A stretch of DNA of 62,114 bases, filler included, from Hausera hauseri (Eukaryota), in the NCBI GenBank assembly GCA_046269625.1. It is 10 parts of 10 records of this genome, joined end to end, with 100 filler letters (N's around TTAATTAATTAA, not from the genome) between each part and the next. Parts side by side here need not be neighbours in the genome. Positions count along the whole stretch, not along the records: positions 27,177 to 33,219 come from JBJURY010148978.1; 9 more parts are not named here. The stretch is one strand, 5' to 3'. The notes beneath the pieces are model-generated. The model was not told where the DNA came from, ran no database searches, and saw only the letters and a program-made list of their open reading frames with translations. This document shows positions 7,101 through 45,807 of the stretch, piece by piece (the first letter of the stretch is position 1; every line of letters starts with the position of its first letter). The translations under genes and the position numbers were made by a program.

Positions 7101-7309
7101 TTTCTATCTCTGCTTTGATGGTTGCTTCGTCTTGCCTCGATATAGCAATTAGGATTTGGTGTCTACTGTCCTGATCTATCATTGCTAAAATGTATCTTTT
7201 TTCTCCATGTCTCCTTTATTGGTCCACAGATATCTATATTTTCTCGAATGGCTTGTTTGCTGATTAGTTCACTGCTTCTTCCTTCATGCTCGTTGTCAAG
7301 GTTTTACTT

Positions 7310-7830: not shown

Positions 7831-8181
7831 AATTACTAAATACAGTCAGTTCCTTTCGTTAATATTATCACAGACCAATAAACCGTATCCCTTATACTCG
7901 GCAATTATAACTTTTATAAGTGAAAAATAATTTAACATTAAAAATTGAAAATGTCTTTGGAAATCTATTATTTTTTCTACTTATAATAAAAATTTCTTAA
8001 CACAAATGTCTCGTTCTGGAGTTTGTGATACTAATTGTCGACGCAACCTTTCAATATGCAAACGAAAAGAACAAATTCAGCCTTCGCTCCATTTCATTAA
8101 GTGAGGATCCTGTTGAGAATTAAAATTCCAAACTCGAGAACAAGACATTTCTGTTAAGAAATTTGAAATAAAAATTTTGAT

Positions 8182-9126: not shown

Positions 9127-10100
9127 ATATTGATGTAAATAAATGGGTAAATGCCTGTGACGTATGTGCAACCAAGCAAAAGAAGACGAAAATTACATGA
9201 CCGAATTAAAACCAATTGAGGTACCCGATATGCCCATGCAAGCCATGTCGATGGATATTGTAGGACCTCTTCCTACAACTTACAAGAACAATAAGTATAT
9301 CTTAACTTGTATTGATCGATTAACTCATTTCGTCGAGTTCATAGTACTAATTGATCAAAGGGCAGAAACCTTGGCAGAAGCCGTAGTAAAAAAAATCATA
9401 TGTCGATATGGATCCCCAGATCAGATACTCACAGATCGAGGAAGAAATTTTACCAGTCAACTTTTTAAGAAGATTTCCAAAATATTTGAAATCGAAAGGT
9501 TAACAATTACTGCATATCATCCTCAATGTAATGGAATGGTGGAACGAATGAACGCAGCCGTCATACGCATATTATCAACAGTAGTAGCAAAGGACCAAAA
9601 AAATTGGGATGAGTTTCTGGAAGGAACCCAATTTGCGATTAATACTACACCACACCCGGCGACAGGATTTACACCATTCTTTATGATGTATAGACGTGAA
9701 GCCTTGTTACCCACGGACTGAGAACTGACGCCATACACGGTTAACCTCGAAGATTTAGAACAAAACTTCGCAGAAGTATTACAAACGCGATTGCAAAAGT
9801 GTTGGGAAATCGCCAAAGAATTATCCCGAGAATATCAAGAGCAGTTTAAAAAGCAATACGATAAGAAAGCAAAACCACATGATATAGAACAAAGAAATTG
9901 GGTTTATGTACATTACCCAGTAGCCAAGAAAGGCACCTCATTAAAATTAACTCGCACAGGCAGAGGACCGTACGAAGTTACCAAAGTTACGCCAACTACA
10001 ATATATATCAACAAAAATGGAAAGGAAGAAGTTGTATGAGTACAAAGAGTTGTCAAGACAGAGATACGACCCAATAAACGTTATAATTTACGCTAACGCA
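9127..10100 (+). pseudogene. Gypsy integrase (Zn finger end, DDE core, GPY/F), with stops and frameshift
   Basis: CDVC; SMDIVGPLP; ILTDRGRNFTS; TAYHPQCNGMVERMN; RGPYEV. Confidence 0.92.
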
Positions 10101-10120
10101 AAATAAAAACTTCCTCAATA

Positions 10121-11545
10121 GTGGCTAGACCGATATCGTACGTTCAGATAGTTTTAGCATTATCACTAATTGTTTCTTATATTCCGGGAACAAATCTCAA
10201 TGGTGGCACGACGAATTTACGCCAGGATATGTATATGGAATTCAGAAAAGTGGATCAAAATTGGAAATTGTCAAAACAGAAAAGAAACCGACAGCCGAAG
10301 AAATTCAAAAACAAGAAAACACCAAATTATTACAATCCATGACAATTCATTATTATTCGCCAAACTCCGTATGCGTTGGATTTAAAGCTTGGAAACTACA
10401 TCACGATTCAGGAAGACTTCAAATTGTCTTACTTGACGTAACCACAAAAGAAGCAAAAAATTGTGATTTTAAACCTGGAGATTACATGCAGTGTTGCGAC
10501 ATAAAGTTTGGACGCACTTATAACCTCACCTGTCGCTTATACTTACCAGACTTGTCCGAAGTATATATTGAAACGAAACCACAATTCCAATTAGTCGTCC
10601 CTGCATGGAACCGACATCACGGGGTGAAACCAAACGAAATGCTACAATCCACTGACCCAGATATAAGAATATTAGACGAAAATATCAAAAGAATCTCTGT
10701 GAATAAGGACAAACAATGCATTCAAGTAAATGCCCAAACAGGATTAACTATTAGTCAGGAAATTAGCATCACATTTGAAGCAACAGTTGGACCGACTCCG
10801 AATATAGGATATTGTTCTATCCGTGCAGGCGTGCAACATCTATGCTGCAGAAGTCCTGTGAACCAAGAATTTAAGATAAAATTCGATTGATATTAAGTAC
10901 GGCCTAACAAACCAAGTGTAAAACTCCGAACTTACTATCCAGAAAATAAAATTTGGAAAATTTCAGTGGAAACAACCACCAGAAGACCGACTACTCGGGT
11001 TGATGCTATTACGAGAACCGCTACGTCGGGCAGTATGTCTAAAAGAAAATTAGGAAGCACACCTATTAAATATTCGGCGCATCAATCTAAGATTGTTTTC
11101 TTTGTGGAGGAAAAACAAAACTACTATATACACATAAGTTGCGAACAACGTAAAATAATCACATTGTAATGTTATCTAAAAACACTTATCAAACAGAAAG
11201 CAATTTACTGAAACCACAATCTGAATACATAGTACAAGTGCATGCAGAGAACAAACAAATCCAAACAATGACATTGCATACCTTAGCCGAAATTCACGCA
11301 AGATCGCATACATACAAAGATATGGACGACGAAACTACAACGTCATTTACTACTCGAGCACCACTAGGATTAACTACCTTACCAATTGCATCTATTGCAG
11401 CACTGTCAACGTTTGTCCTCATCATATTAATTGCGATTTTTCGATTAGTTACCAAAAATTGTTATTCTAAGTGTCCTAAAAATTCAGAATAGGAATTAAG
11501 GAAATTGGAAAAACCTGTAGACCCATATGATAAAATAACCTCACA
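10121..11545 (+). pseudogene. Env-position type I membrane protein: signal peptide, Cys-rich FN3-like ectodomain, TM helix (frameshifted)
   Basis: Hydrophobic IVLALSLIVSYIP; FN3-like F-strand motifs IKFGRTYNLTCR and LKPQSEYIVQVHA; TM IASIAALSTFVLIILIAIF; tail motif YDKI. Confidence 0.65.
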
Positions 11546-11613
11546 ATTAGAGAACAGGTTATTCTGTCATCAAACAAAGAATTGGTTTGGTTTAAAGCCA
11601 TACTTTGTTTTAA

Positions 11614-11650
11614 GATTAACCTTTATGTTTTCTTTTTCAGACTGGTAAGT
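11614..11650 (+). promoter_or_regulatory. Branch point, polypyrimidine tract, 3' splice acceptor, 4-nt exon and 5' donor
   Basis: gattaac-ctttatgttttctttttCAG|ACTG|GTAAGT; the same layout is present in copy B. Confidence 0.65.
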
Positions 11651-11662
11651 AGTCAGATTCGA

Positions 11663-12900
11663 ATGAACCCAAGCCGACATAGAATCGACAAAGAGAAGCA
11701 TACAAGCCGACCTAGTATTGACGAATTCTTGCAGCGATATGTGAGAGTGCGGATTCCGAATTCAAAGGCCATCTATATGCAAATCAATACAGAATTACAA
11801 GGAAAGGGCTTCGTTCGATACGGAAAAGTTGGTGAGATACCAAACGGTCTGAAAGGAACGACCGAAGAGGCCAGAGTTATATATTTATACGCCTGGAGAG
11901 AGGATAAAGATGCCAGAGCATATCCTTTGCAACAGATCGCCCAGTACATAACGGACAAGGAGCAAAGAATATATATACACGTGACCGACGGAGAAATCTA
12001 TTATCGGCTGAAAGACCAAAAATGGGACTCTTTCCAAGGGAGGCAAAGTCGATTTAACACGTTTGTAATTGAGAGTAGGAACCTCCATAATTATGAGCTG
12101 GAGTTTCGGGTGGTCACTTTACCTGTAAAGATGATGATCGAAATAACTAAAGAGGAAATAATACTTATCGCATTACCGCCCCTAGACGTTAGGCAAAGGC
12201 CAACAGAAGAAGTACAATACGCGCATCTGAATTCATTCCGACTCGTGGCCGATGACAGAAATATCCGGATTGCCGCAATAAATTATGGAGAAGGAGAAGA
12301 AGGGAATTACATCCCCATTGAAATATCCATACGAGGAGAAAACGGGGTAGAGATCTATTCAAAGATTATTAACCCAATGAAAAAAGTACGAGAAACCTAC
12401 GCAGAAGTAACCGGAATCAAACAAGAACGAATAATCTACGAAACGGATTCCAAGTTAGTGCAGGAGAAAGTAGCACAATGTCTGTACGGATACGTCTTAG
12501 TGGGGTATCAACTCGAAAGGATGATAGAAAAACTAAACATACCAGTAACTCATCTTGCCGGAACCAGAGAGATAGAAACCCACCAATTATAAAGAGACAA
12601 ATGGAGATTCAGGACAAAGAAAAAAGGTCATCTATTACTGACTGTAGAAGGTCGGTTTAAGTTAATGGTATAGGCGATGACCGGAGGAAACATGAAAGTT
12701 AGCCTACTGCTGACCGCTAGCCAGAGGTCCCAATATTTAAGAGATATAAATGCCGGATTAAGGTGGGATCATGAGTGGATTCCCAGTAATCCCGGACAAA
12801 ACTTACGGAATTTTCCCAAACTGGAAGAATCGATGCAAAATATAGAAAACACTTCTGTCCATACTCTCCACCGAGAAACGTCGAGGCGACACCTAATTGG
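11663..12900 (+). pseudogene. Accessory ORF: unknown N-terminal domain plus DEDDh (ISG20/REXO4-like) exonuclease-fold domain lacking catalytic residues
   Basis: IAAINY...IEISIRGENGVEIYSKIINPMKKVRETYAEVTGI...VQEKVAQCLYGYVLVGY...GTREI follows the DEDDh pattern, but the ExoI DxE motif is absent. Confidence 0.6.
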
Positions 12901-13800
12901 AACTATCAAATAACTATCAAAGGATTGAAACAGAGAAAACAGAAGACGAATGGCAGCCCAACGAGGAACCGAGTACAAGTTACGACACCATGACCAATGA
13001 TAATTCATTTAAAGTACCCGAAATTCCTTGGAAATATTTAGCAGAAAAAGATAGAATTTCAGAAATCGAAACCGGGAAGACGGCCAAAAGCAAAACCTCC
13101 TTCTTCAATTATTTATTTAAGAAAAGAAGTAAAGAAGGAGAGAAGGAATTGAAGGAGGGACACAAAGCGGACAGTAAGGATTCAAAACAAAAAGAAGCCG
13201 ACAAACCGAAAACACCAGCAGAAGGATCCTTAAGAACAAACCCACAGTTTCATGTGGAGAAACCTACGAGAATACCGAGTAAACAAAGAGAACAGATAAC
13301 AGAAATAAACGTCATGCAGAAAAGGAACTCTACAGAAAATGTACACTACGCCATTACGGCGGATTACCCCAGGATGTTAATAGCCACAGAATATTATAGT
13401 AAACAGAAGATTAAAGAGGCAATGTTCTTTGTCAAATCAATGCCAGACAAGTTTACGAGAACACCTATGTCTGGGAAAACCCCAAAATCGGAAAGTATGT
13501 GGCCCCAATATTTCAATCGAGAAGGAATGACAAACTTTTAGTTCCCGTAGATGGGTCTGTGAAATCATTGCTTAAAAAGCAATAACAAAAATACCGATCG
13601 ACTGGTGAAGTTCCCGACTTAGATCGAGATACTGTCAGCGATTGGACCATAATATCTGTGGGATGCGATCCTAAGAAAAGCTCTATAAACCCAAAACAAA
13701 AAAGAATATATGCCTATTTAAATCAGGACGCCAATGGATTGATGATAGAGCCTATCTAGATTATGATAAGAGTCGATTTGGACTACGAAAACTGGGAAAA
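12897..13800 (+). pseudogene. Lys/Glu-rich linker plus conserved unknown domain (frameshifted)
   Basis: EYYSKQKIKEAMFFVKSMP / YENTY...PKIGKYVAPIF...VPVD matches EEYVSRWKIKEAVFYIRTVP...HENAY..PKLGRYLTPLF...VPVD of 27532-27774. Confidence 0.6.
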
Positions 13801-13809
13801 GAAGAAAAT

Positions 13810-14184
13810 AAATGCCCCGTATGTGAGGCAAACCTGAAACAAGGGTACATAATGCTGAATAACCCCGATTACCGACATAAATATTGCAGATTTTGTGTAG
13901 AAAAATGGACACTGAAGAATGGGAAAACCACATGTCCAGTATGCCGAGTGGAGGGTGCCGACCTAAATTACTACTCGAACGGTAGTTGCACTAGAATAGT
14001 GAGGATAAAGCCCTACCATAGTTATGAACTAGAGACAAATTCCAGAGAAGAACAGCCTAGTATCAGCTCTAGCCCCAGTCTAAGAAAACGCATGGAAATG
14101 TTACGACAGCCGCGACATCACGGCACCTCTCCTGACGCAATGGGCACATCCGAGGATGCCGCTCAGGGAGAAGAAATGTTGTAG
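13810..14184 (+). CDS. RING finger domain, terminal accessory ORF of copy A
   Basis: CPVCEANL...(Y)RHKYCRFCVEKW...TTCPVCR; the third Cys is mutated to Tyr relative to copy B. Confidence 0.75.
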   Translation, partial: KCPVCEANLKQGYIMLNNPDYRHKYCRFCVEKWTLKNGKTTCPVCRVEGADLNYYSNGSCTRIVRIKPYHSYELETNSREEQPSISSSPSLRKRMEMLRQPRHHGTSPDAMGTSEDAAQGEEML

Positions 14185-14970: not shown

Positions 14971-15229
14971 TTATTATTATTATCCTGTGAATATATGTCA
15001 GTTGTTTAATGAGTTTTTTCTTTCTTTCTTTTAACTGATGAAATGATCGATTAGGCATATAACGTAACCAGTTACGTGACACACGTGACGCGTGCGCNNN
15101 NNNNNNNNNNNNNNNNNNNNNNNNNNNNNNNNNNNNNNNNNTTAATTAATTAANNNNNNNNNNNNNNNNNNNNNNNNNNNNNNNNNNNNNNNNNNNNGAA
15201 TTGGCCGGTTTTTACATCTATATATATGT

Positions 15230-21045: not shown

Positions 21046-21071
21046 AAACTCACCGTCATTCTTTATTTTTT

Positions 21072-21108
21072 TGTATTATACCAAATCAGAAGGACAGAAA
21101 ATGTCACT
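21072..21108 (-). promoter_or_regulatory. Extended -10 promoter (TGgTATAAT) with upstream GACA-N5-TGTC palindrome, candidate WYL operator
   Basis: Minus strand GTGACATTTTCTGTCC...TTTGGTATAAT lies about 30 nt upstream of the WYL start. Confidence 0.45.
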
Positions 21109-22303: not shown

Positions 22304-22317
22304 AAGTTCCCTCCGGG

Positions 22318-22336
22318 CTATTCCAAAATGGAATAG
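22318..22336. promoter_or_regulatory. LysR recognition site (T-N11-A palindrome)
   Basis: CTATTCCA-AAA-TGGAATAG perfect inverted repeat between the divergent lysR and permease genes. Confidence 0.65.
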
Positions 22337-22466
22337 GATTGATGATTAACATGAATTAGACTTACCGCTATGGTTATCATACAATGTAAAAAGGAAAGAA
22401 TCAAGAAAACACAACAGAGTACGCGCCTTTCTAGACGCACTCCAGAGAAAGGCAGGAACAATCTAT

Positions 22467-22804: not shown

Positions 22805-25060
22805 TAATTCCGTGATAGACTTAACTAAATCTCAGCCATATTGTTCTCTAATTGGGAATATAAAGAAAAACTTGAGGAAAATGAAGAATTTATTCCATTA
22901 CACGTCAGAAAGCCACTACGGACCGATGGAGCAGTGAAAAGCCTAAGACACGGCACAACACTTCACTTAACGTTCCAGCTAAAAGGAGGAAGCGAAATAA
23001 CAGCGAACGAATTCAAAGAACGTATTGTCGAGCGACGAAGACCCATAAATGAATTGGCTTTGATTCGAAGAAGATTGATGGATGTAAATTTGAACGAACA
23101 TGATTACAAGGTATTCCATCAAAGTTATTAGAAGGTTTTTTCGAGTGTTCAAGAAGAGCTATGCATATTGACAACCGTAGCCAGGAAATTAAAAAGGAAA
23201 GATAATGTAACATTACTAGAGAATAAAATGGAGAAACTAGACGTGCAGAACGAAAAGATCAACGCAATTATCTATGAGGAAAGCTTAAGGGAAAGCAAAT
23301 CGGCAATTAATACAAGAAGAGGTGCGGATAGTGGTATAAAGGAAAAGGTCATACTGCCGAAATTGCAGAAGTTAGAACTCCCAAAGTTTGGCGGCATAAT
23401 TACAGAATATGATAAATGGAAGTGAACGTTTGACACCTGCGTTCATAAGACGTCAATGTCTGACATCTACAAACAATTGAAATTAAATTAATGCCTGTAC
23501 GGAGAACCGAAGAGATAGTTGAGAACTTCGACTTTTTTGAACAAAGCTATAAGGCTGCAATGGGAAAACTTCACTCTTATTATGTGGGAGAACAACGGTA
23601 TTATGCTGCCTTTATGACCGAAGTGATGCGTTTTAAACCAATCAAGGAAGAAGACATCATAGGCCTAGATCGATTTGTTGCTTTGTTGGATGGCATAACA
23701 GTAAGATTGCAAAATTTGGGAATGAAAGAAGAAATAGGTCGAGAGTTCTTATACCAAAGTCTTGTAGAGAAACTCCCGGAATCCATAGTATTGTTATGGG
23801 AGAGATATGCCGCCGAAGAGAGGTTAAATCGGACGGTTGAAGAACTGAAAACTTGGGTGGAGTCGGAAGCGAGCATACGAAGGAGTACCATTGAAAGAAT
23901 TAGAGGTATCAACGTCTTCAATACATTCGATGCTAGATCACCGTCAAGATTTGGAAATGAACATAAATTTGATCAAACAACAACTAACGATCGTTCGAGA
24001 GTTGAAAATTATTTCCCCTCTATGGGTAAGAATAACACATCGTTCGGAACCAGGAGACACGATAAAGAAACACGAAAGAGTTTTTACATAGATAGAAAAT
24101 CTAATTAAAATGAGTCCCAAATTCATGACAAGACAAAGAAAGGTAACAATACTAAAGCCACGGATAAGACCGAGAAGATGCTTTGTTAAAAATTTGAGGA
24201 GGGGACTTGTAAATTCGGGAATAACTGTAAATTCTTACACAAGAAGAAAAGGAAAAATGAATCGCGAATATGTAAATACTATCTGAACGGCAAGTGTATG
24301 TACGGAGAAAAATGTCACTTTGTTCAGTGATCACCGCTGAAAAAGGGTAATTCTAAAAAACAAGAAAAAACATTCTATACACTCAATACGAAAGAAAGAA
24401 TAAACAAAGAGGAAGACGTGGAGGACGATATTGAGGCACGGGTTAACACGTACGTAATTCAACGGTCAGAAGGGAAAACAACAGGGAATAAAATAGCATT
24501 GCGTACTGTGGTTGTGTGGTTGGAAAATGGAGAGCGAAAAGTAAATGTCTGTATGTTGTTAGATGACGCGAGTACAGAATGCTTCGTAAAACGTTCTGTC
24601 TCAGAGCAATTAAAATTAGTTGGTAGTCTGGAAAACGTGTCTGTCATGGTGGTAGGTGGAGAAACAACAAAATCGAAAATGGAGAGGGTAAAAATGAAGT
24701 TACGAAGTAAGAACGGGAAGGTTAACACCCAATTTGAAGCGTTGGTCCTCCATGATCCAACTGGGAAAATGATGGTCGTGAATTGGGAGGTCGAGAAAAG
24801 CAAATGGCCACATTTGAGAGCAATAAAGTTCGCCGCTCAAAAATCGCCGAAATCGGTTGATGGGATAATTGGTTCGAACTATATGCATCTACATAGGTCT
24901 ATAAAGGAAATAGTAGGAAAAATAAACGTGCCTGTAGCCAGATTAACCCCACTTGGATGGACGTGCGTTGGGGTGATCGGAGATGAAAAGAAAAAGGTAA
25001 GGACTAACTTCGTTAGAACATTCTGGACTAGAACCGATGAAATACGAAAAGATTGGAACA
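22805..25060 (+). mobile_element. BEL/Pao LTR retrotransposon gag and aspartic protease remnant
   Basis: LPKLQKLELPKFGG...W (DUF1759-like gag); LVEKLP...W; MLLDDASTECFV; IIGSNY; PVARLTPLGWT. Confidence 0.85.
24178..24330 (+). pseudogene. Two tandem CCCH (C-x7-C-x5-C-x3-H) zinc fingers within BEL gag
   Basis: LC*KFEEGTCKFGNNCKFLH...ICKYYLNGKCMYGEKCHFVQ*. Confidence 0.7.
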
Positions 25061-27076
25061 TACCATGGGAAATATAGAAAAAGAGCGTGCTGAATCAATC
25101 GATGACGAGCTTAAGGATCGGGATGACAAATCAGAATTAATTACCAATGAAGTTTCAAAAAATGAAATCACCAATGTACCTTCCATTATTGTCAGTCTTG
25201 AATCCACACAACAGAACAAACACACGCTTAAGAGCTACAGCGATATGTTAGAAGACTGCACAGATAAATTAGGAAATAATTTGAAACCGGTGGCAAAGGA
25301 AAGTATAAAAATTGGTGGGCAGTCTTGTGCTTCTAAAGTTAATGATTTTCTGGATTCAGTTTGGGAAGAAGTCGATACTACAGAAGATGTCATTCAAGAA
25401 AAAGATATTTAAAATGAACAAGCCATATTAATTTCTGCATCATTGATCGATGATATCAATACTATATCCGACTGGTTTCGACTAATGGAAAATACACCGT
25501 TCTTAATTGATACTGCTAGTCCGGATCAGAAAATGATTGAATTAAAATTAATGGAATTGAAAACTTTAAATGCTGAATTATTTTCACAGTCTCAGAAATT
25601 AGATAAAATCAAGACGTTGATTTCGGATGTTATCATATTTTCTGTTTCGTCACAAAAGCAAAATCTTCTTGACCTGAAAAAGGATCTTGTTGAAAAGTAC
25701 AATGCGTTAGTCAAAGCAGTTATGGATATTCATAATAACCTTCAAAAGAGTTACACGGAAATTGAAGATATTGATTTAGGTTTCGATGATAACGTTGGAA
25801 TCCTTCAAGAATTAGGAAACCAACTCAACAATATTTCTGTTGAATCTTGTTGTAGAGATCCCGAATATACATATGCTCGGTTGAGAAATTTACAGTTGTT
25901 ATCTGCCGTTTTCGACAATTTACAAATAAAAATCCAGGAACTTAAGGGAAAAGTTGAAACTTTCAATCATTCGGAAAAATCAGGATTCCTGCAAAGAAGT
26001 GGAAATTGATTGTCTAAATGAATTCATTAAAAATCTAATTCCAGATAAGGAGAAATTGCTAAAAGCTATTCAAAACAAAGAGAAGAAAATGTCAAAAAAC
26101 GTACAAGGACAAATATCTCAAATTAATGAAATTAAACAGTTTTTAACACAACGCTCAGTAATTGGTTTCAATCGTGATTCCATTGAACGGAATATAAAAA
26201 AATACATGGAATGTTTTAGTCAGTTGATTGAAAAAAAAGAACGAATTAGAGACGTTGACAGCTGATGTTTTGGGATTTAGTGAAAACGGTCCCGAAGAGA
26301 AATGTGTATATTTTGGAACGTTGTTTAAATCTATGAATCATGTACTCAGACGTTGTTTGTATGTAACAAATAAACGGAAATCGGAATTAGATACAGCTGT
26401 TTAACGTAATTTACTGTTAGACTTGGAGAAACAACAGTTAATGACGGAAATCCTCGAATTCGAAAATTTTCCTTTACTAAAATTAGCTCCGAGTAAAATC
26501 ACCACTAAATACACAGAACAAATTAATATAATAAGGGCAGATATTGCTAAAGCGCAACGCCACTTTGAGGACATACAAGATTTTGAGTTGAGGCCTTTCA
26601 CATTCGTGAACTTGGCAGTCGAGTAGAAAATGCCCAAAGGAGCATTGAATTTAAAGAATATAACTTAAAAGTAGGCAAAATTCAAAAATGTCTTCGGAGC
26701 AGATTGCGAATTTTTAATTAGGCATATCGTGAAAGTAAACTTTTTTCGGATTAGTACGATAATCTTAACAATTGGTTGGATGAAAGTTATAATTTGCTGG
26801 AGATTTAAACAAGAACAGTCAAAGGTTCTTGATCATTTGGAAATGTTAAAGCTGAGTTCTCATTATGCTAAATCCCACTGCAAATTCCTTATGGCATCCA
26901 TTTCGATGAAACAATGAAAACTCATGGTGATTTGATTACAGTTGAAAGTATCATTAGTGATTGCCAAGTTGCTAAGCAAGAAGCTAATAGTCATATAAAA
27001 GTTTTCGAAAAACTTAAACTGCTAATGTCTAAAGAAATAAAAGATTATCAAGGGAGCGAAATTTACAATACTATGA
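25060..27076 (+). pseudogene. Decayed fragment of a large coiled-coil/spectrin-repeat-like host protein
   Basis: Successive same-strand helical ORFs with spaced Trp (ISDWFRLME, IGWMK), broken by stops and frameshifts. Confidence 0.4.
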
Positions 27077-27176: not shown

Positions 27177-27456
27177 ACTCTATTGTTTTCGCACGAGAAA
27201 AGTATTTTAACTTGGATATTTCTGCTCGGCATACTGGGCATGTCGTTTTTCCATTAATCAGGGTCCACCGCTCTAAGCAATCGCGGCAGTGTCGATGTCG
27301 ACAATTTCTATTAGCAAGAATCACGTATCCTTGCCATAAATTAGCCTCACATACTGGACAAAAACCTTCAGTGTTATTGTCTAACTCACAATCCGTGACC
27401 CATGTTATTTCTTGGGAAAAGAGTCCTTTGGTATTTTTATACAGATATCCGTGCAA
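27177..27456 (-). CDS. RING finger domain, copy B (runs into contig end)
   Basis: CPVCEANLWQGYVILANRNCRHRHCRDCLERW...TTCPVCR. Confidence 0.8.
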
Positions 27457-27531
27457 TTGTTTCTAGTCGGGATCAATTAACCTTTTCCGTGGATCTCCAT
27501 TAACGGCTATTAGGGTCCACTCAATTACGGG

Positions 27532-28199
27532 TTAGGCGTCTAGGTCTAGGATCCCCATTTTCTTGTACTGTTTCTTTATTTTTATTCTTGTCTGGTTGTC
27601 GACTGGTACGGTTATTCTCTTAGTTCCTATTTTCGATTTAAACAGTGGAGTTAGATATCTGCCTAACTTGGGGTCAATTCGTGCATAAGCATTTTCATGT
27701 AGCTCCAGTACTGGTACTGTCCGAATGTAAAATACCGCCTCTTTGATCTTCCAACGACTTACATATTCTTCCATTTTCAGGATGCTAGATTGTTCTTCCG
27801 TGTCTTGTGGTCTTCTGTGGTTATTATTTCCTTGTCTTGTCTTCTTTTTAGAACATTCACTTTCGTAAGGATTTGTTCAGTTTGGGTTGATTCTTTTTAT
27901 TTCTTCTTTAGAAATCCGAATATTGATTTCTTTTTCTTTTCTGGAGATGGGTCTCTCAATTTGGGCCTTTTGGTTAATGTTCCTTGATGGCTCTCTATTT
28001 TCTTTGTTTTTATGGGTACCTGGAATCCATATGTAAGGTTACTGGGTTTATGTTGGGAAATATCTTCCTGCTTTGAGACTGTAAATTGGATATTACTATC
28101 TTTGTTTGATATCGTAATTTTCATGTTATTATCCCTTTTGGGTTCGACAATCCGTATTGGCGAATATGGATGAAATTGCTTTCTGTGGCCAGGATTCAA
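27532..28199 (-). pseudogene. Linker plus conserved unknown domain, copy B
   Basis: KKSIFGFLKKK and WKIKEAVFYIRTVP match SKTSFFNYLFKK and QKIKEAMFFVKSMP of copy A. Confidence 0.6.
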
Positions 28200-29332
28200 T
28201 TCCTATAGGTTTGTATTGCTCTGCAAGTTATTTTTGGGATTCAATGGTAATCATCCATGATCCCATGTGATCATGGCGTAAATATCACGCAGGTATTGTG
28301 TCCTTTTGGTAGCGGACAATTGTCGGTTGATTTTATAGTAGGTTCCGGTCATGATTTCTATCATCGCCTTGAAATGCGTTTCCATGGTCATAGGAGCGGG
28401 TCAACTTACATTATCCATCCTTTTTTTAATCTTGGGGTAAGCCCAAAATTCTCGCATCCCTGCTATATTTTTGGGCCTTATTTCTAATTTGTCTACTTGT
28501 TCTTGTGTTTGGAATCCTGCGATCATACACCCGTACAAGCAGTGGTTTAGTTCTATCTCTACGGCTTTTGTGTCTTTCCCATTTATCAAGTCTTCTTTTC
28601 TTATGCCCGTTATTTCCGCATAAGTTTCTTTTACTCTTTTTCGAGGAGCAATTAGCCTGTAGTAGACTTCTATCCCGTTCATATCTTTAATCAAGACTTC
28701 AATGGGAATGGAGTTTCCGTCGTCTCCTTCTTCGTAATTTGTTGCAATGATACGGACATTCCGTCCATTCTGTACCAGTTTATATGACCATAAATGTTGG
28801 CCTATTTGGTCTTCCGTTGGATACTGATGGTATATCAGGGGAGGCAAGGGTATAATCGGAATTTCCTCGCAGGTGATTTCTATCATAAGTTTTACTGGTA
28901 GGGCTGTGATCCTTATTTCTATTTCTTTTTCAATTAAGCTTCCTCCGCGCAGCTTAAAAGTACTAAATTTATACTGCCGCTCTTTGTTCGAATCCCAGTT
29001 TTGTTCAGTCAATCTATAGTAAACTTTCCCTTTTGCTAGATGTATATATACGTCACTGTGCGTTTTAACTCACATTTTAGTAGGTTCCGTAGTTTGTAAG
29101 ATCGAGCATCTTCGTTGCTCCGCATAGCATATAATCGTATTATTCGGTTTTCTTCTATGATTCCTTTTAAAATGTTGGGTATTTCATTTACTTTATGGTA
29201 CTCCGTTAATGGTTTGTTCTGTAATTCCAAGTGTATCTGCCTGTAGAGGGCTTTAGAGTTTGGAGTTATTATTGTCGCATTCTCTTGCAAAATTCCATCG
29301 ATGTCTGAGTAAGCGTTGTTACTGGCTACCAT
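28200..29332 (-). pseudogene. Exonuclease-fold accessory ORF, copy B
   Basis: PNSKALYRQIHLELQ; ALPVKLMIEIT; IIATNY...IPIEVLI...YAEITGI...CLYGCMIAGF, clearly homologous to 11663-12592. Confidence 0.65.
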
Positions 29333-29335
29333 AAT

Positions 29336-29372
29336 ACTCACCAGTCTGAAATAAAACAAAATAAGATTAATC
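29336..29372 (-). promoter_or_regulatory. Splice acceptor, ACTG micro-exon and donor, copy B
   Basis: gattaat-cttattttgttttatttCAG|ACTG|GTGAGT. Confidence 0.65.
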
Positions 29373-29443
29373 CTAAGACAGATCTTTGTTTCATTACAAA
29401 ACATTGTCACTGTCTGATGACAGAATAACCTGATCTGTAGTTC

Positions 29444-30670
29444 TCAGATTATTTTATCATACAAATCACTTTGGTAAACCACCATTATCCCTCTATCCTT
29501 ATTTTTGGGCTGGTTTTTACAATTTTTGGCAATTACATAAATTGACGCAGTGGAGATTAATAAGACGAACGCTGATACTCCGATAATTGATACAATAGGT
29601 AAGGTTACTAATGGTGTCTGTGTTGTCATATATGTAGTAATTGTGTTTTTGTGTAACTTGACCTTTTTGTAATCATGGGTAACTATCTTCTGCTAAAGTT
29701 TGTAAGGTGATTGTCTGATCCTGCTTTCCGGGTGCGTTAATTTGTATTATGTATTCTGTCTGAGATTTTAAAGATTTACATTCAATTTGTGGTGTATTTC
29801 TTATGAGTACTATTCGGGCGGTAGACTTTTTAGTCGAGATTTCCATTGAAATTTTCCTAATTCTATTTTCTAAATACTAGATTCGTAATTGTACACTTGG
29901 TTGATTTGGTCGTATCTCATATAGGTCAAATCGTATTTTGAAATCTTGGTTCACAGGTATTTTACAGCACGGTTTTTGCACACCATCACGAATGGAGCAA
30001 TATCTTATGTTCGGAGTTGGTCCTATTAGTGCCTGAAACACGATACTGATTTTCCGATTGCCGGTTAGTTCCGTCCGAGTATTTACTTGAATACATTGTC
30101 TTTTCTTATTCACAGAGATTTTCTGGATATTTTCATTTAGCAGTCTTATGTCTGGGTCAGTGGATCTCAACATTTCGTTCAGTTTTACTCCATGATGCCT
30201 GTTCCAAACAGGAATAACTAGTTAGAATTGTGGTTTTATTTCGAAAATTTTAGATTATTTTGGTAGGTACATTCGATAGGTCAGATTATAAGTATATCCG
30301 AAATCTGTGTCGCAACATTGCGTACGTTCTCCGGATTCAAAGTCACAATTCTTCGTTTCTTTTGTTGTTACATCATCTAAGACAATTTGGATCCTTCCAG
30401 AATTTTGATGTGGTTCCCATGTTTTAAATCCAACGCATGTGGAGTTAGGCGAGTAGTAGTAGATCGTTACTGCTTGTAATAATCTTATATCTTCTTGTCT
30501 TTGATTTCATTCGTCTGTTGATTTCTTTTCCGTTTTAATGCTCTCTGATCTTGCTCCACTTTTCCGAACTCCATGAATTTCGTACCACCAGTTAGCTTGT
30601 GTTTTCGGGATATAGAAGGAAATTAACGAAAATGCTAAAATTATTTGAAAGTACGATATTGGTCTATTGA
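29444..30670 (-). pseudogene. Env-position FN3-like type I membrane protein, copy B
   Basis: Signal RPISYFQIILAFSLISFYIP; STDPDIRLLNENIQKISVN; LKSQTEYIIQINA; TM IVSIIGVSAFVLLISTASIYVIA; YDKI. Confidence 0.65.
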
Positions 30671-30699
30671 TTATGGAGGATGTTTTTGTTTTCTTTCTG

Positions 30700-32960
30700 T
30701 GTTGTTGCGAGCTAGATCGCAAATTGTAACGTCTTTCTGGCCTTATTTCTGTTTTAACAACTCTCTGAATAGATACTACCTTTTCTTTGCCATTTTTATT
30801 AATGTACACCGTAGTTGGTGTGGTTCAAATAACTTCGTAAGGTCCTCGTTAAGTGCGACTAAGTTTTAATGATGTACTTTTCTTTGCAACTGAATAGTGT
30901 ACGTAAACCAAGTTTCCTTTCTCTAATTCATGAGGTTTGGCCTTCTTATCATATTGTTTCTTAAATTGTTCTTGATACTCGAGAGTAAGCGTCTTATCTA
31001 TATCCCAGCATTTTTGCAGTCTCATTTGTAGGACTTCTGTAAAGTTTAGCTCTAAATCTTTTGGATTTGCATGATACGGAGTCATCCCTAAGTCCGTAGG
31101 TAAAATCGCTTCGTTTCCATACATCATAAAAAATGATGTAAATCATGTGGCGGGGTGTGGGGTAGTATTAATAGCGAATTGTGTTTTTTCTAAAAATTCA
31201 TCCCAGTCTTTTTGATCCTTTGCTACTACGGTTGATAAGACACGTATAACTGTGGAATTCATACGTTCGACCATCCCATTACACTGAGGGTGATACGCGG
31301 TAGTAGTTAATTGTTCGATTTCGAAGATTTTAGAAATTTTGTCAAATAGTTCGCTTGTAAAGTTTCTTCATTTATAGATCATATTTGATTTGGCGGTCCG
31401 TATCTGCAGATAATTTTCCTTACTACTGCGTCTACTAATGTTTCCGCTTTCTGATCGATTAGTGCGATTAATTCCACAAAGTGTGTTAAACAATTTACGC
31501 ATGTCAAAATATATTTGTTACTTTTATAAGTTGTAGGTAAAGGTCCTACTATACCCATAGACATAGGTTGTATAGGTCTATCTGGTACGTCGATAGGTTT
31601 TAATTCTGCTATATAGTTTTTTACTTTTTTGTTTTGTTGCGCAGACTTCATAAGCGTCCACCAAATGTTTCACGACAATATAAACACTTGGCCAGTAATA
31701 CTTATTCAATATTCTTTCTAATGTTTTCTTTCATGACATATGTTTAGCTAAATGTGAATCATGTTCAGCCATTAACACTTCTGTCCGTAATTCTTTTGGA
31801 ATAACTATCAATTTTCGTCCCTTTTGTTCGTAATATAGGATATTATCCGGATTTGATGCATAATATTTGTGTCCGTGTCTTTGTAAGTGTTTCTTTAGTT
31901 GAAGTCCTTTTGGTACTCGTCTTGTTCGGCAAATTTAACTATTTGTTGGATAACTTTATCTTTAGCTCATTCGGAAGCAATTCTGATTGTCTTATTTAGT
32001 GTTAAGATATGTTGTCGCTCGACTAATTCATTGAGCTGAGCCTTTTCTATGGTCGTAATCGTATTTGTTTTTGTTTTAAGTCTTGATAAAGCGTCTGTGT
32101 CAATATGTTTACTTCCGTGTTTATATTGAAATTCGATATTGTACCGCGAAATTTCCTCAATCCATCGATTTAGTTTATACGTCGGGTTATTAGTCCGTCC
32201 CTTTATAGTGATAACAGCTTTATGATCGGTATCTATAATAATTTTCTGTCCGTAAACACAGACATTGAAATGTCTCAAGACTTCTTTTACGGCTAGTATC
32301 TCTAATTCAGTGACTGAATAGTTTTTCTCAGCTTTTTTAAGCGTTCGTCCTCCGTATGCAGTTGAATGTTCCAATTCTTCGTTTTCTCATTTCTTAGCCA
32401 ATTTATAACCAATTCCTTTTTTACTTGTGTCCGTCTTTATTATGAATGGTAAGTTGAAATCGGGGTATCTCAACACTGGTTTACTTGTTAAAATTTACTT
32501 CATTTCGTCGAACGCCTTCTGTTCAACATCGGTTTATTTCCATTTGATGCCTTTTTTCAATAGCCGATATAACGGCGCATTTATTTTCGAGTTATCCGAT
32601 ACGTAGGTGGCATAATATCCGCATAAACCTAACCAATGTCTTAATTCTTTCTGATTTTGTGGTTTCATACAATCGGATATTTTGTTCAATAAAGGTTTGT
32701 CTGGCTTTGATCCTCCTTCTCCAGCTATATGTCCAAGATAAGATACAGCATTTTTTGCCAATTTACATTTCTTTTGTTTCAGTTTTAATCCTGCCTGTTC
32801 CAAACGCATAAGAGTATCTTTAATGTCCTTTAAATGTTCTTCTTCTGTTCTTGACGCTATCATTACATTGTCTAGATATGCAAACGCATAATCTAGACCC
32901 ATTAGCATCTTGTTCATCATTCTAGTAAAAATAGCTGGGCCGGTTTGTGGTGCCGCGGAT
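30700..32960 (-). pseudogene. Gypsy pol (RT, RNase H, integrase), degenerate
   Basis: FAYLDNVMI (YLDD decayed); VSYLGH; WLGLCGYY; AEKNYSVTELEILAV; TDHKA; DALSRL; IVGPLP. Confidence 0.92.
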
Positions 32961-33319
32961 TCAGGTAGAAGAGCCAACTTTTCAAGAAAAACAATAGTGA
33001 CCGTGAAACGATCTATGAAGAAATGCAAGTTTATTAAACGAGTACTTAAACGACGTGCCATTTGTCTTTGTTCTCGAAGCAAAGTCTTCATGATGTGCAA
33101 ATCGAATAAGTTCTTAATGAAAGTCAGATTATATCAAAGTCTTCGAAAACATAAATGTATCGAAAATTCCCATAGTTTGCCCGAAACCGAAAATCGAACG
33201 AACCAAGTGCAATAAAATANNNNNNNNNNNNNNNNNNNNNNNNNNNNNNNNNNNNNNNNNNNNTTAATTAATTAANNNNNNNNNNNNNNNNNNNNNNNNN
33301 NNNNNNNNNNNNNNNNNNN

Positions 33320-34836
33320 TGTACGTGTGTGAAACATACAGCAAAAGAGGCGTGTCGGTATTCAGAAAGTGAAGTATTACCTTTGCCAGTCGTCTGGTGG
33401 CAAATTTAGTTTTTTGGAAAAGATCAACTATGACAACTATTAGAAGAAAAGGTAGTTCGTCCGTCGTTCGTATCTGGTTTGAAAGTGTAGCCTGAAATGC
33501 ATTTACGGCTTGATTTTTAAACTTTGCGTGGTAAATGCAAACAACGGTGTTTGAAGAGAAATTTTTATTTTAAAATTTGCACCCTAGTCAGCATTTCTTG
33601 GCATTCTTATTGAATCTGCTGTGATAATAGCAGATTGATAACGGCGCATGCGATGGTGACCGGTTTTTAGATGCAGAATGGGCGAGGTCAGCAACAAAAT
33701 CCCTTCGCCAGGATAGGGAAAGCTTGTTTAATTTGTTGTTTATATTGTTAGTTGTTGCGTGTTGTGCAATATTTTCAGCACGTAGCTGATTGAGTTGTTG
33801 CTCTATTGATATGTTATTGCATTGAATATCGTTAGAGACAACTGCCGGCGAAACGACTGGTGGGGAATTTAGATTTAGAATCTCGCGTGACTTGCCGGCT
33901 AATTCGGCCAATTTGTCAAGAGCCGTGGAGTCCTACACCACGGTAAGTAGGGCTCGAATTTGGATGGGTAACGCGTTAAGAAAGTAATGACGCAGTAGTT
34001 CGGGGTTGTGTTCCTTAGTGACGCCGAGCGTGTGCAAATGTGTCAGAGACGTGCGTAAGAATTCTGATTGTCGTTGTGTGCCTATAGCATTGTCATGGAA
34101 GAAGCGTTGTATGATGGTGTCCATTGAGGGTTTTGTGATTTTAAGAACAGCGTTGGAGAGCTGCGAGTGTGGGTCAGGAAGTTCAAATATTCCAAGGATG
34201 TTATGAATTCGTGTTTTAATGTTGTTAGGGAGTAAGAAAAGGAGATTGTGTGCCTTGGTTAAAGGATCGGTGATATTGTTTGCCTGTAGACAGAGTTGAC
34301 GGAATTGCAACCAAGTTTTGCTGGAGCCTTGGTTGTCAATGAAGAATTCGATGCAATTATGGAAAGGAGCGGAAGAGGAAGTAGGTGAAGTATTATTGGT
34401 GGAAGCAGGAGTGGGTTTTTGAAGTAGTATGACAGATTTTGGTTTCGTGGTGGTTTTATCCGTGGTGTCTATGGTGGGCCATGAAATCATGCCACTACGG
34501 ATAAGGAAGTGTATGTGGAGGTGGATATAAGTTGAACAAGGTTGCAGAAACCCAACGAGAGTTACTGTGGAGCCATGGTGTGTGAGGTAAAGGTCAGGTG
34601 AGCGAAGAAAAGTGGCGATGATGTTGTAGATAGTCGCAGTGTTTAGGTGTGTTAATGCATTTGTGCATATGTGTTTATTTAATAAAAGAAGAGGAAATAC
34701 AGAGGTCGTGTAGCCGGGGGCGTGTCGTGGGGCGTCAGAGAACGGTGCCGCGTGATCCAATGGTATAGGGTGGTGATCGGGACTTCGATCTCGCCGTGGC
34801 GGACCGCAAACTTCGGGGTAGCCGAGGTTCCCGCAT
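33320..34836 (-). mobile_element. Second Gypsy family: probable LTR plus degenerate gag with CxYH knuckles
   Basis: IGTQRQSEFLR...LRHYFLNALPIQIRALL...LAG and CYYHSRFNKNAKKC, with a second CIYHAKF copy; typical metazoan Gypsy gag. Confidence 0.7.
33382..33415 (-). promoter_or_regulatory. Candidate -1 ribosomal frameshift signal at the gag end
   Basis: A AAA AAC followed by TAA, then a TTTGCCA-N9-TGGCAAA stem-loop. Confidence 0.5.
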
Positions 34837-34839
34837 GTA

Positions 34840-35610
34840 ATATTTCTTCATCGGTCACTCCATATTTGCTACATAAGAAGTCCATTTTGCAGACAAATGA
34901 CGAATTGTTCGCATAATCCATTTGCAATAGATACGACTCAACGATTACGGCAATTTCTGGTTCATTACTCAATGAAATAATTTTCCCATAAACACCAAAT
35001 GATGCAAGAATTGCCAAAATTGTCATTTCCTCTGTTATTCCTTCAATCATTGCTCGTAAATAGTATTTCCCTTTCAACAAATTACTAAAATGAAATTTCC
35101 CATCATTATTCATGAACGTATTTTGACTGAAATTATCACTAATCATCGACAACAAAATACCCGACACCGATTTACCCGTATTGTTATCTACGACAGTCGC
35201 AATCAATTCTGCTAATTTGTATGCTGTGTATTTGTGTGATTCGCCTATCTGGACGAATTTGTATCCGGGTTTCATAAAGACGAGTTTGTATTTGCCGACA
35301 TTCGGTAAACAGATTTTCGATAATCCTCTGGGGATCTGTAATAAATCAATAAACAATTTTGAGTTGTCGTTTTTAGCGATATAATAATAATAAATATTGA
35401 CGAGATGAGATGGCGAAATGGGCAGCGAGAATCCAATTTTCTCAAATACAAGACCCAAGTCGACATCCTCATCAATTATTGTCGGGGCAATATGCATTTT
35501 ATTCCAGCACCAACGATCATTAATAAGTGGTATATTACTACTACTAGGTGTTAATTCAATTTGATAATTAGTTGGTATAACATTAAAGAGGATTACCTGC
35601 ACGGACAAAA
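34840..35610 (-). pseudogene. Nodal modulator (NOMO)-like host gene fragment with internal deletions, interrupted by the retroelement
   Basis: DRWCWNK; GLSKICLPNVGKYK; YTAYKLA...SGILLSM...GKFHFSNLLKGKYYLRAM; VYGKIISLSNEPE; VTDEE, in NOMO1 order. Confidence 0.7.
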
Positions 35611-37569
35611 GATAATGTTCTAACGTTAAAACTTATTGTCACCAAGAAAATGTCAAATATTGAGTAAGTGCAACACAAAAATTCTGATAAAAATTGTGTT
35701 AAGTTGAAACACTGCTTAACTTTGGTATACAATCAATTTCTATGGCCCCAGACTAGTCTGTCGATTGGAGCAATTTCTTATCTACAACAATGATACTCGT
35801 AGTTGATATATCTGAGTCTGGATCCAAGCTCAACTGATTGATATAAACGATTCTAAGATTGAGTGAAATGTCTAAAACGCGTCAGGAAGCGAAGAACGAA
35901 TCGGAATTCGTAACACAAGATTCACACAAAAAAGCGATAATTACGATAACATTATCAATAACCCAACGTCTTTAGTGACCTGCTAAATCAGACTGGAAAA
36001 CTTTTTGAGGTATTTGAAAACTATTTTTCCGTGGAAATCGTGACGTCGATTTCGATAAAATCTCAAAGGGGTTCTGTAAATTTTGGTATCCACAAAATGT
36101 GAGGTAAAACACTACCGGCAAAAGATCAGGATTTTTTTAAGGAACTTGTTGGAAATATTTCTACCTGAGCCGTTGTTTGATGAAAAGTACCCAACGACTT
36201 TTTGCAGATGTTGATGACTTGATAACAACAAATTTTCCTGAATGTTCAAGTCACAATCAATGCATGTTTCATTAGATTCTTTGACTTGCCGTTAATACGG
36301 ATAATTATCTTGATATTGTTCTTGTTATTTCCCTATTGTTTCAAAAACGTTCATTGGAAGATCGATGCGATTGTAACTGAATTTCCACGAGTCCATTGCA
36401 AGAATTACCCGATTGACGTAGATTGCTGATGTTTGCAAATAGGAATATAATGGACTTGCCAATTGAAATTTATTGAGATTGCTCAAAACGACAAGACCGA
36501 GACTGATTCGTCTTTGATTGATAAACGAACTATTTAATTTACTGCCTATAGAATTTATTGTGTTTAGAAAGGGAACGGTCTTCAGAATTATTCCCCATAG
36601 ATAACTTTAGGAAATGTTCCGCACACGACGATAAATCTTCATTGATTCTGAATCCTGTAAACGAGACAGATTCTAATTTGTTGTTTCTGTAAGTACTACC
36701 AATACTGTTACACTCTTCACTGCTTGATGAGTTGAATGAAGCATTTAACCACTTTGGATTTAATAAATGATCACATGGAATTAAATATCTGATTCGATGC
36801 GTAGTTTGAAATTTAAGCTACTTCTAGATGAAGACGTGTTGATGGACTTGACACAGGAAATTTCTTCTAGATAAGGTACAGAATTATCGTTGCTCGCATC
36901 CGTTCGCCTCATATCACAGCTTAATCAAATCGTAGGTGTGATTTTCGAGTGATCTTACATTGTTGATGCAAATTAAAACATCGTAAAATAAATTTTAGAG
37001 GCGGAAGATCGGGGCGCGCCTATGGGCCCGACGCGGCGGCGGCGGACTCCCGGCCGTGTCCAATCAAATAGGCCAGAGGGCGCCGGCCTCTGTGGGCACC
37101 ACATATAACATTAAAGAGGATTACCTTTATAGGTATATCCGAATGGTACAGATTTTTCTGACACCATTTATTATGTCTTTCGCATGAAACTTTCAAGTGA
37201 TTGAGATATTTAATTGATTCTGGTAAGAAATAATACCTAAACGGAATTTCCGCAACACGTTCACATTTATTTCTGGTAGATAACACTTCATCTTCCACAA
37301 TACCGTCAATTAGACTTATGTATTTGTTCTTGATCAATTTACACAAATCCGGCAGTTGATCAGCATACGGATACCGATTGAGTGATTTCAATNNNNNNNN
37401 NNNNNNNNNNNNNNNNNNNNNNNNNNNNNNNNNNNNTTAATTAATTAANNNNNNNNNNNNNNNNNNNNNNNNNNNNNNNNNNNNNNNNNNNNACAGGTTT
37501 GAGCCACTGAGCAAGTGCGACCGCTCATTCCCGAACGATGCTACCACTCCTGATCTCCCCAGATCCCCC

Positions 37570-38903
37570 TATATAAGAAGTTAAGAAGAAGAGCTCTTCT
37601 TCTGCAACGCAATCATTTTTTATATAGATAGATTCCTTATTTTTCTGCAACCTAAGCATTTTTCATCATCATCATTTTTTTCATCATCATCATTCGTTTG
37701 ATATCGTGTGTAGTTAGTTAGGGGCTATGGGCTATGGCTACAGTAAAGTTATATAAGGAAAAAAGTTAAGAAGAAGGGTTCTTTTTCTGCAATGTCAGCA
37801 TTTTTCTTTTCATCCTCATCATTCTTTTGATGACGTAATTACATTTTTTCGATGGGCAGATAACATAGGTGGATAATAGTAAGGGGTAGGGGTGATGGCG
37901 CGGGGTGGTAGTGATGTTAGCATGTACCTAATAAGGTTTTATTAGCTATTAGTGACCAAGACCTTCCGTCAACTCCATTAGATATATTTAAGTAAGTAAA
38001 TATTTGTATAGGTATTTATATAGTTAGATACACCCTCCTCGTTGTTGACGACATATATAGGTAGTAGATGATGTATACACCATCATCATCATCATTCTTT
38101 TTCATGATATCATCGTCTTGATAACGTAATTTCCTTTTTCTTTAGTAAGACGTGTGGAGTAAGGGGTGATGGCATGGTGGCGTATTATGTTTTTATAGTA
38201 AGTTAGGTACTAGATGATGTATACACGATCATCATCATTCCTTTTTTGATGACGTCAGCATCTTGATGACGTAATATAGTTATTAATGTAGAGTGACTTC
38301 TTTTCTTATTGTAGTAAGGGTGATGGAGCAGGGGTGGCGTGTTATGTGTAGAACCACCCTGTCGTATAAGGGTAGTGTTAGTGACCAAGACATTCCGTCA
38401 TCTCCATTAGATATATTTAAGTAAATATTTTATAGGTATTTATGTAGTTTGATACACCGTAATCAATGTTGATGACATGTCTAGATAGTAGATGATGTAT
38501 ACACCATCATCATCATTATTTTGGTGACATCAGCATTTTGAATACGTAATTTTCTTTTTCTTTAGTTAGACGTGGAATTATGTCGAGTAAGAGGTGATGG
38601 CATGTTGTGTTTTTGTAGTAAGTAAGGTAGTAGGTATACACCATCATTCTTTGTGATGACGTCATCGTCTTAATGGCGTCATATAGCTGTTTATGTAGAA
38701 TAAAGGGCGATGGGTCGGGGGTGAGGTGTTGTGTACGCATCAGGTTCCCTGTTGCATAAGGGTAGTGTTAGTAATCAAGACCTCCCAACACCTCCATATT
38801 CTCTAGTTTAGTTCTTAGATGTAGGAGTCTGTAGACCTTGAAGGCATTGCCGAGGACCCGATCGAGGCTTGTTTGCTTGCAGACTGCCGTGGCACCATTC
38901 GGT
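37570..38903. repeat. Left TIR (outer end missing), containing internal ~420-bp repeats
   Basis: Reverse-complement match to 45808-47190, e.g. gttcttagatgtaggagtctgtagaccttg vs caaggtctacagactcctaaatctaagaac. Confidence 0.88.
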
Positions 38904-45756: not shown

Positions 45757-45807
45757 ACTTGACAATGTTATATTCCTATGACCCCTTATAAATTTATACT
45801 TTAAACT

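Follow-up and report, generated by a model that had tools for sequence, protein, structure and literature searches.

Does the retrotransposon carried in this stretch of DNA make its surface protein as the tail end of Pol, and what kind of surface protein is it? The window (the whole stretch analyzed, 62,114 nucleotides of Hausera hauseri DNA from assembly GCA_046269625.1) is made up of ten contigs with N linkers between them, and a Ty3/gypsy element is present on two of them: copy A on the plus strand (8282-15097) and copy B on the minus strand (27177-33219, record JBJURY010148978.1). A sequence-only reading had proposed that integrase is fused in frame to an env-position membrane protein whose ectodomain looks like fibronectin type III (FN3) rather than like a fusogen. 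We found that the pol frame runs on, without a stop or a new ATG, into this membrane protein, and we consider it somewhat probable that a Pol-surface-protein polyprotein is the route by which the protein is expressed.

The two copies are 72-75% identical across the pol and membrane-protein region. Both are decayed, with 8 stops in 573 codons of the pol/membrane-protein frame in copy B and 3 stops in 343 codons in copy A, two of the three within integrase. Both contigs break off inside pol, which is why gag, protease and a 5' long terminal repeat (LTR) are absent from both copies. When public sequencing contigs were compared, 11,368 contigs of run X1 aligned to the copy A contig, most of them less than 95% alike, so the copy A family is high-copy and diverged. 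Copies A and B are decayed members of a high-copy Ty3/gypsy retrotransposon family. The types of element in the window suggest that the host is an animal.

The integrase frame is open into a signal sequence

In copy B, the integrase tail ends in RYNLR (30717-30731) and the pol frame is stop-free from there onward, through a basic linker (30666..30716) that lacks both stop and Met, and as far as the end of the hydrophobic part of an internal signal sequence that extends from RPISY (30651-30665) to PKTQA (30594..30665 in all). In copy A this frame contains one stop, after RYNLR (10094-10096), at the start of its linker (10094..10126), followed by the signal sequence (10127..10189) and a frameshift near 10190. 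The copy B linker is 18 nt longer than that of copy A, a difference that keeps the frame. No in-frame Met occurs between the GPY/F motif of integrase and the end of the signal in either copy. In all of these respects the junction is as the sequence-only reading had described it. The signal and transmembrane calls rest on hydropathy, and cleavage after the Ala of PKTQA was predicted by eye from the -3/-1 rule. There was no slippery heptamer at the junction of copy A or B, and RNA structure there was not significant (z -1.1 and -0.6). The chance of an open in-frame gap of 20 codons is about 0.09, and the two copies alone could not decide the state of the junction because both are heavily decayed.

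A check for a stop after integrase in additional copies, which the sequence-only reading had called for, was made with public contigs aligned to 10050-10160 (372 from run X1 and 29 from run X2). At the first base of the copy A stop, a different letter was present in 2497 of 2537 X1 depth units (98%; 80 contigs) and in 51.7 of 54.1 X2 depth units (96%; 12 contigs). At the codon aligned with the Met of P0001 (10121), an intact homolog described below, the third base of ATG was missing in 2549 of 2695 units of X1 depth (83 contigs) and in 32 of 40.3 units of X2 depth (11 contigs). We read no newly created pol-frame stop in any of the 21 listed variant rows, which show variants of at least 8%. The single indel row listed at the junction was 1 nt long (23 of 2019 depth units in X1, 2.5 of 29.9 in X2), and one contig carried a 33-nt skip. 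Among the listed variants of the copy A family there was no common ATG or frameshift across the junction. The copy A stop is private decay and not the family state, and a stop-free, ATG-less frame from integrase to signal is family-wide for the copy A family.

Comparison of the two copies indicated that this frame has been maintained. The ratio of nonsynonymous to synonymous substitution rates (dN/dS) between A and B was 0.15 over the integrase tail, linker and signal (44 codons) and 0.17 over ectodomain repeats 1 and 2 (225 codons), with dS above 1 in both, and 0.34 over the end of repeat 3, the transmembrane helix and the tail (78 codons). The corresponding ratios of proportions (pN/pS) were 0.13 for integrase, 0.39 for the downstream open reading frame ORF2 and 0.32 for the RING finger. 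All parts are under purifying selection, and the junction and membrane protein are a real, selected feature.

Pol is of the Ty3/gypsy type

Copy B retains the C-terminal part of reverse transcriptase (RT) together with RNase H (32063..32944, minus strand; Pfam RVT_1 5e-13, RT_RNaseH_2 7e-29); this part is decayed, and the contig starts within RT. Its integrase (30717..31900, minus strand) comprises the core, the GPY/F motif (30831-30848) and the tail to RYNLR, and is interrupted by a frameshift near 31380 and several stops. The copy A integrase (9161..10093, plus strand; Pfam rve 2.6e-14) likewise has the core, GPY/F (9962-9979) and the tail to RYNLR, with stops at 9719 and 10037, and is 70-75% identical to that of copy B at the amino-acid level. 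By Pfam domains, the order RT, RNase H, integrase is as in Metaviridae (Ty3/gypsy). Both integrases carry RGPYEV at the GPY/F position, which we take to be the GPY/F motif of Gypsy-type integrases, and their best PDB matches are foamy and Ty3 integrases. The Pol domain matches and GPY/F point to Gypsy over BEL/Pao, in agreement with the assignment first made from the sequence. The RT active-site motif of copy B (32861-32878, minus strand) reads YLDN, not YxDD, which may be decay.

Anatomy of the membrane protein

Among 1.84 billion representatives, the sole real homolog of the ectodomain was P0001, an unnamed singleton of 479 residues (E 1.2e-23 and 30% identity with copy A; 37% over 266 columns with copy B). 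The sequence-only reading had overlooked this intact homolog, which has a Met just before its signal. The second of the two matches in that search, the fungal-type repeat protein P0002, is unrelated and was dropped as a chance match. The copies and P0001 have a common anatomy: a signal, a short charged segment, and two repeats of about 90 residues with four Cys each; then come a Thr-rich linker and repeat 3, and after these a single transmembrane helix with a short tail that ends in Y-D-K/R-I.

The ectodomain of copy A (10195..11291, plus strand) contains repeat 1 at 10321-10608, repeat 2 at 10654-10944, the Thr-rich linker and repeat 3 at about 11062-11291, with a frameshift near 11170; the transmembrane helix (11379-11456) and the tail to YDKIT (11526-11540) follow within 11379..11540. 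On the minus strand of copy B are repeat 1 (30204..30488) and repeat 2 (29880..30158), each with four Cys, then a remnant of repeat 3 (29694..29816) from which, compared with copy A and P0001, the Thr-rich linker and the first half of the repeat are missing, then a transmembrane helix (29525..29602) in a frame that differs from that of the ectodomain through an upstream frameshift, and finally YDKII and a stop (29444..29461). The YDKI that had been noticed in both tails is thus present, at 29447-29461 and 11526-11540. P0001 and copy B both stop directly after Y-D-K/R-I, and at the 11542 codon most contig depth differs from copy A. An earlier stop in copy B (30507-30509), where the stretch marked by the sequence-only reading ends, is decay: beyond it the frame still matches copy A and P0001.

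The signal is the best conserved part of the protein: in copy B, 19 of its 26 residues are identical to P0001, compared with 80 of 228 in the ectodomain, where the best 26-column window reaches 14. Neither a furin site (R-x-K/R-R) nor an internal hydrophobic, fusion-peptide-like stretch was present in the ectodomains of P0001, copy A or copy B. The copy A ectodomain had no homolog among proteins of 406-2000 residues, and P0001 found only itself among proteins of 263-839 residues, so that an intact fused protein was not found in these size ranges. Contigs from metagenomes, viruses and prokaryote genomes yielded no related loci. A 1363-nt skip within 10066-11430 in one X1 contig (depth 136) takes out the signal, the ectodomain and most of the transmembrane helix, and may mark a deletion derivative. 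Depth, which cannot rank the parts, summed to more over the tail and acceptor region than over the ectodomain.

The ectodomain is very probably a beta-sandwich protein

Repeats 1 and 2 of P0001 aligned with each other better than did 1000 of 1000 shuffles. In a language-model atlas search, fn3 clusters ranked first (0.89), which we treat as a lead only. A single-sequence model of P0001 consisted of three beta-rich blocks, and with this low-confidence model the top Foldseek rows were mostly FN3 chains (best E 1.8e-3), while VIA-align returned Ig-like/FN3 sandwiches at Z 4.5-6.5 (a root-mean-square deviation, or rmsd, of 2.8 over 74 aligned residues for the Z 6.5 match). An L-x-P-x-T/S-x-Y motif before strand F is typical of FN3. 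It is present in repeat 3 of copy A and P0001 and degenerate in copy B and in repeats 1 and 2; the FN3-type 'LKP' motifs described from the sequence therefore occur once per copy, in repeat 3, and in copy B read LKS. With the copy A model, Foldseek brought up cupins, phage proteins and unnamed proteins; the matches to cupins and phage tail proteins had TM-scores below 0.3 and were disregarded. The listed fold matches were beta-sandwiches, and no known fusogen was among them, both models being of low confidence.

Several results speak against an FN3 identity. Pfam (including fn3) and PDB sequence searches with the ectodomain gave no match, nor did a four-row profile of repeats 1 and 2 against PDB. 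Both models are poor (pLDDT 46 for P0001 and 53 for copy A), and that of copy A matched cupins and jelly-roll/GOLD sandwiches, not FN3 (Z to 7.5, rmsd 2.1, 80 aligned). Repeat 3 was not significantly like repeat 1, whose score was reached by 640 of 1000 shuffles, and its likeness to repeat 2 was weak (20 of 1000). The ectodomain is very probably a beta-sandwich repeat protein, and on these models a specifically FN3 fold is fairly probable. Of the earlier description of the protein as FN3-like rather than fusogen-like, the type I anatomy lacking a furin site and fusion peptide stands; the FN3 identity is left with no Pfam match and two discordant low-confidence models, one leaning to FN3 and the other to a jelly-roll.

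Two accessory modules lie downstream of a strong predicted splice acceptor

Two further modules downstream, ORF2 and a RING finger, had escaped the sequence-only reading. We ranked splice sites by a simple scoring of our own, over 378 AG and 212 GT sites in copy A and 387 AG and 221 GT sites in copy B. In copy A, an acceptor-like tract (11609..11650, plus strand) has its AG ending at 11640 and a donor-like GT at 11645, which rank 1/378 and 1/212. In copy B, the equivalent tract (29336..29377, minus strand) has an AG at 29346 and a donor-like GT at 29341, 4 nt on, ranking 1/387 and 1/221. The top acceptor directly precedes ORF2 in both copies. The AG sites adjacent to the signal, in contrast, scored below zero, with best ranks of 44/378 in copy A and 29/387 in copy B. 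As an internal control, the ORF2 acceptor favours fusion over a spliced env, though a weak acceptor is possible. The best acceptor and best donor are 4 nt apart in both copies (CAG, ACTG, GTRAGT), which suggests a conserved 4-nt micro-exon or a splice hub for multiply spliced accessory messages. RNA structure at the tail and acceptor was weak (z -1.2 and -2.1).

ORF2 of copy B (28449..29332, minus strand) has its own ATG and one frameshift, and its C-terminal half resembles an ISG20/REXO-like DEDD exonuclease fold whose acidic residues are largely lost; that of copy A (11663..12589, plus strand) is likewise DEDD-exonuclease-like in its C-terminal half. A profile of three ORF2 sequences matched ISG20L2 (E 2.5e-5), SDN1 (2.5e-4) and ISG20 (2.8e-3), and the atlas search gave 0.88 for an ISG20/REXO-like fold. 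Asn replaces the first catalytic Asp in 3/3 ORF2 rows, and the Exo II Asp is missing in the profile alignment. ORF2 is likely to be a DEDDh exonuclease-like fold that is catalytically dead, as judged from these alignments. A homolog search of proteins with ORF2 gave no match. A third, distant ORF2 homolog (21%, E 5e-11) lies on another contig (51070-52128, minus strand); it also has Asn at the first catalytic position and stands behind the top acceptor of its region (52077, rank 1/130), and no pol or membrane protein was recognized upstream of it.

A C3HC4 RING finger follows ORF2 and, frameshifts considered, may belong to the same ORF. In copy A the RING (13804-13977) lies in a frame at 13675..14184 on the plus strand (Pfam zf-C3HC4 1.4e-5, above cut-off), and a purine-rich stretch after it, near 14164-14178, may be a polypurine tract. 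The copy B RING (27196..27369, minus strand) is 64% identical to it, and the contig ends there.

Expression and function of the membrane protein

If the polyprotein route holds, a ribosome finishing Pol would reach the basic linker and the hydrophobic segment, the endoplasmic reticulum would insert the downstream chain into its lumen with Pol staying cytosolic, and signal peptidase would cleave after PKTQA to release a type I protein. The terminal YxxI could then sort the released protein to endosomes or to the cell surface, where it would be close to membrane-tethered Pol and capsids. The least certain step is what the protein does there. From its modeled fold it would likely act as an adhesin and not as a fusogen; it would bind a partner on neighbouring (germline) cells, and entry would depend on uptake or on a fusogen provided in trans. 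The dead exonuclease-fold and RING module would come from a second message, likely spliced, and would probably target host RNA defence. A single Gag-Pol-Env ORF has a precedent in Atlas virus.

Pol is usually made at a low level, and such low output would limit a fused surface protein. This bears on the most serious competing account, that the membrane protein comes mainly from a subgenomic RNA, spliced or internally initiated, with readthrough from pol minor or incidental. Several of our own observations lean this way. A YAG stands directly before RPISY in both copies, its AG at the same place (10128 and 30664). The sole intact homolog recovered, P0001, is a stand-alone call with a Met two residues before RPISY, so a relative may make the membrane protein on its own. 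An in-frame ATG could be made by a third-position variant at 10105 (128 of 1515 X1 depth units in 10 contigs, 0 in X2), and at 10121 one is possible in up to 5% (X1) or 21% (X2). The junction test itself has limits: depth is about 1500-1900 across the linker and about 5000 on the flanks, depth is not copy number, the listed variants are those of at least 8%, run X1 is possibly the window's own sample, and the contigs cover the copy A family, not the copy B family. Precedents weigh in the same direction. In errantiviruses, env gets its start from an exon upstream (PMC12992720), which makes the lack of an ATG weak evidence by itself; exon 5 of Cer1 shares the polyprotein frame but is expressed by splicing (PMC10309623); and the env of Tor can use an internal promoter. 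An open frame is accordingly no proof that the polyprotein route is the one used. On the other side, the AGs at the junction have negative scores and best ranks of 29-44, ORF2 keeps the top-ranked acceptor, and upstream of the AG two families, with dS above 1, both keep the linker open and in frame. As there is no stop at the junction, any ribosome on pol reads into the membrane protein. We regard a mainly subgenomic origin as unlikely, though a serious contender.

The fused frame is also compatible with another function. Instead of serving spread between cells, the protein could be a decoy or signalling modulator, with a cytokine-receptor-like ectodomain and an endocytic tail, that blunts host defence together with the RING and the dead nuclease. 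Its fold matches include cytokine-receptor FN3 modules and it lies next to a RING and an ISG20-like fold, but the matches are to generic sandwiches at Z below 8 and no ligand is known; we find this unlikely. That it is a true fusogen, either of a new type or highly divergent, with the sandwiches as receptor-binding or class II domain III-like parts, seems improbable to us. The env position, signal, single transmembrane helix, conserved Cys and YxxI tail would fit, the folds are of low confidence, and the unusual conservation of the signal relative to the ectodomain hints at a role after cleavage. The lack of a furin site and of a fusion-peptide-like hydrophobic stretch argues against it, as do tandem short repeats and a Thr-rich linker in place of an elongated fusion domain. 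Finally, the many stops and frameshifts in both copies might suggest that readthrough is a chance product of decay, or that a piece of host gene was captured passively. This account is largely refuted by the contig junction test, where the private state is the stop rather than the open frame, and by dN/dS of 0.15-0.34 over the membrane protein; the order of parts is kept in two families with saturated synonymous sites, and the frame is intron-free. We consider it extremely improbable.

Taken with the polyprotein route, these parts allow a broader proposal that is tentative and, as a whole, rather doubtful: in an animal Ty3/gypsy lineage, the fusogen may have been replaced by a captured tandem-FN3 adhesion receptor within the Pol polyprotein, with an unusually conserved internal signal that also tethers integrase to the membrane and a spliced dead-nuclease/RING counter-defence. 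Alongside F and gB it would be a third surface type of metazoan Gypsy elements, one that spreads through adhesion and uptake and not through fusion of its own. Surveys of env-bearing Gypsy elements are baited with F and gB and assume that env is a separate ORF, and would therefore overlook a surface protein that is fused and not a fusogen. If true, the proposal would offer another route for the movement of retrotransposons between cells, an example from nature of the env slot taking in a receptor-like domain of cellular origin, and a testable model for the first origin of envelope genes.

Other contents of the window

One contig (15198-22704) is bacterial-looking amid eukaryotic repeat contigs, with GC 0.43 and long intact ORFs, among which we take 21374-22345 to be LysR-like and 20095-21075 WYL-like by eye. 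At 23464-25077 (plus strand) are remnants of a BEL/Pao-type gag (DUF1759) and aspartic protease, and at 6500-8100 other Gypsy-like fragments, RT on the plus and integrase on the minus strand, lie back to back. Long inverted arms at 37570-38903 and 45805-47189, 80-94% complementary, with internal repeats of about 430 nt and about 7-9 kb apart, share a contig with an rve integrase (44113-44790), possibly as a terminal-inverted-repeat element. An ORF at 34679-35632 (minus strand) has carboxypeptidase-regulatory/NOMO-like Ig domains below Pfam cut-offs and adjoins a gag-like ORF recognized by eye (33933-34847).

Comparison with known systems

Each part of this element has a precedent, and the combination was not found in the literature searched. 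No FN3-type or Pol-fused Gypsy surface protein was found there, in a search that did not extend to subscription journals or Repbase; the words 'fibronectin', 'fused', 'exonuclease' and 'ring' have 0 occurrences in the main text of PMC13524379, whose element tables could hold fused cases. Further sources for comparison were the ICTV profiles PMC8742986 and PMC7879559, and PMC4402516 and PMC12440569.

In its layout the element is like Atlas virus and related nematode Belpaoviridae, in which, as the sequence-only reading had noted, Env is fused to Pol. Atlas virus, a belpaovirid, has a single Gag-Pol-Env polyprotein (PMC9094657), and here too the surface protein, over the part from integrase to signal, is in one frame with Pol and would be released by proteolysis. 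Atlas virus, however, is a BEL/Pao element with a phlebovirus-like class II GN/GC fusogen, whereas the present element has a Gypsy pol and three short beta-sandwich repeats. In placing a signal-ectodomain-transmembrane protein after a Ty3/gypsy pol, it resembles errantiviruses with F-type or HSV/gB-type env (PMC13524379, PMC12992720), the types recovered in a metazoan survey with F and gB baits (PMC13524379). Errantivirus env is a separate ORF with a furin site and fusion peptide (F) or a five-domain gB fold; in Drosophila iERVs it belongs to the F type and is joined by splicing to exons upstream (PMC12992720), again as had been noted. Here we found neither an env ORF separate from pol nor a furin site followed by a fusion peptide: the element is Ty3/gypsy, yet by the features tested its surface protein is not an errantivirus env.

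In-frame extra ORFs are not new in Gypsy elements, since Cer1 of C. elegans has a non-fusogen ORF after integrase, in the env position and in the polyprotein frame (PMC10309623). Its product CERV, in contrast to the protein described here, is nuclear, has no signal or transmembrane helix and is made from a spliced mRNA. The bdelloid LTR elements Vesta and Juno also carry extra 3' ORFs, with a DEDDy exonuclease, GDSL or transmembrane ORF3 (PMC5408684); their DEDDy ORFs are RNase D-like with the catalytic residues kept, whereas the one here is ISG20/REXO-like with its acids lost and shares a single element with a membrane protein and a RING. An Env-independent membrane protein has been proposed for cell-to-cell spread in the sORF2/FAST-like proteins of MDG1-group elements (PMC11952523); those are myristoylated proteins of about 100 residues encoded by a separate ORF, while the protein of this element has about 470 residues and a folded ectodomain.

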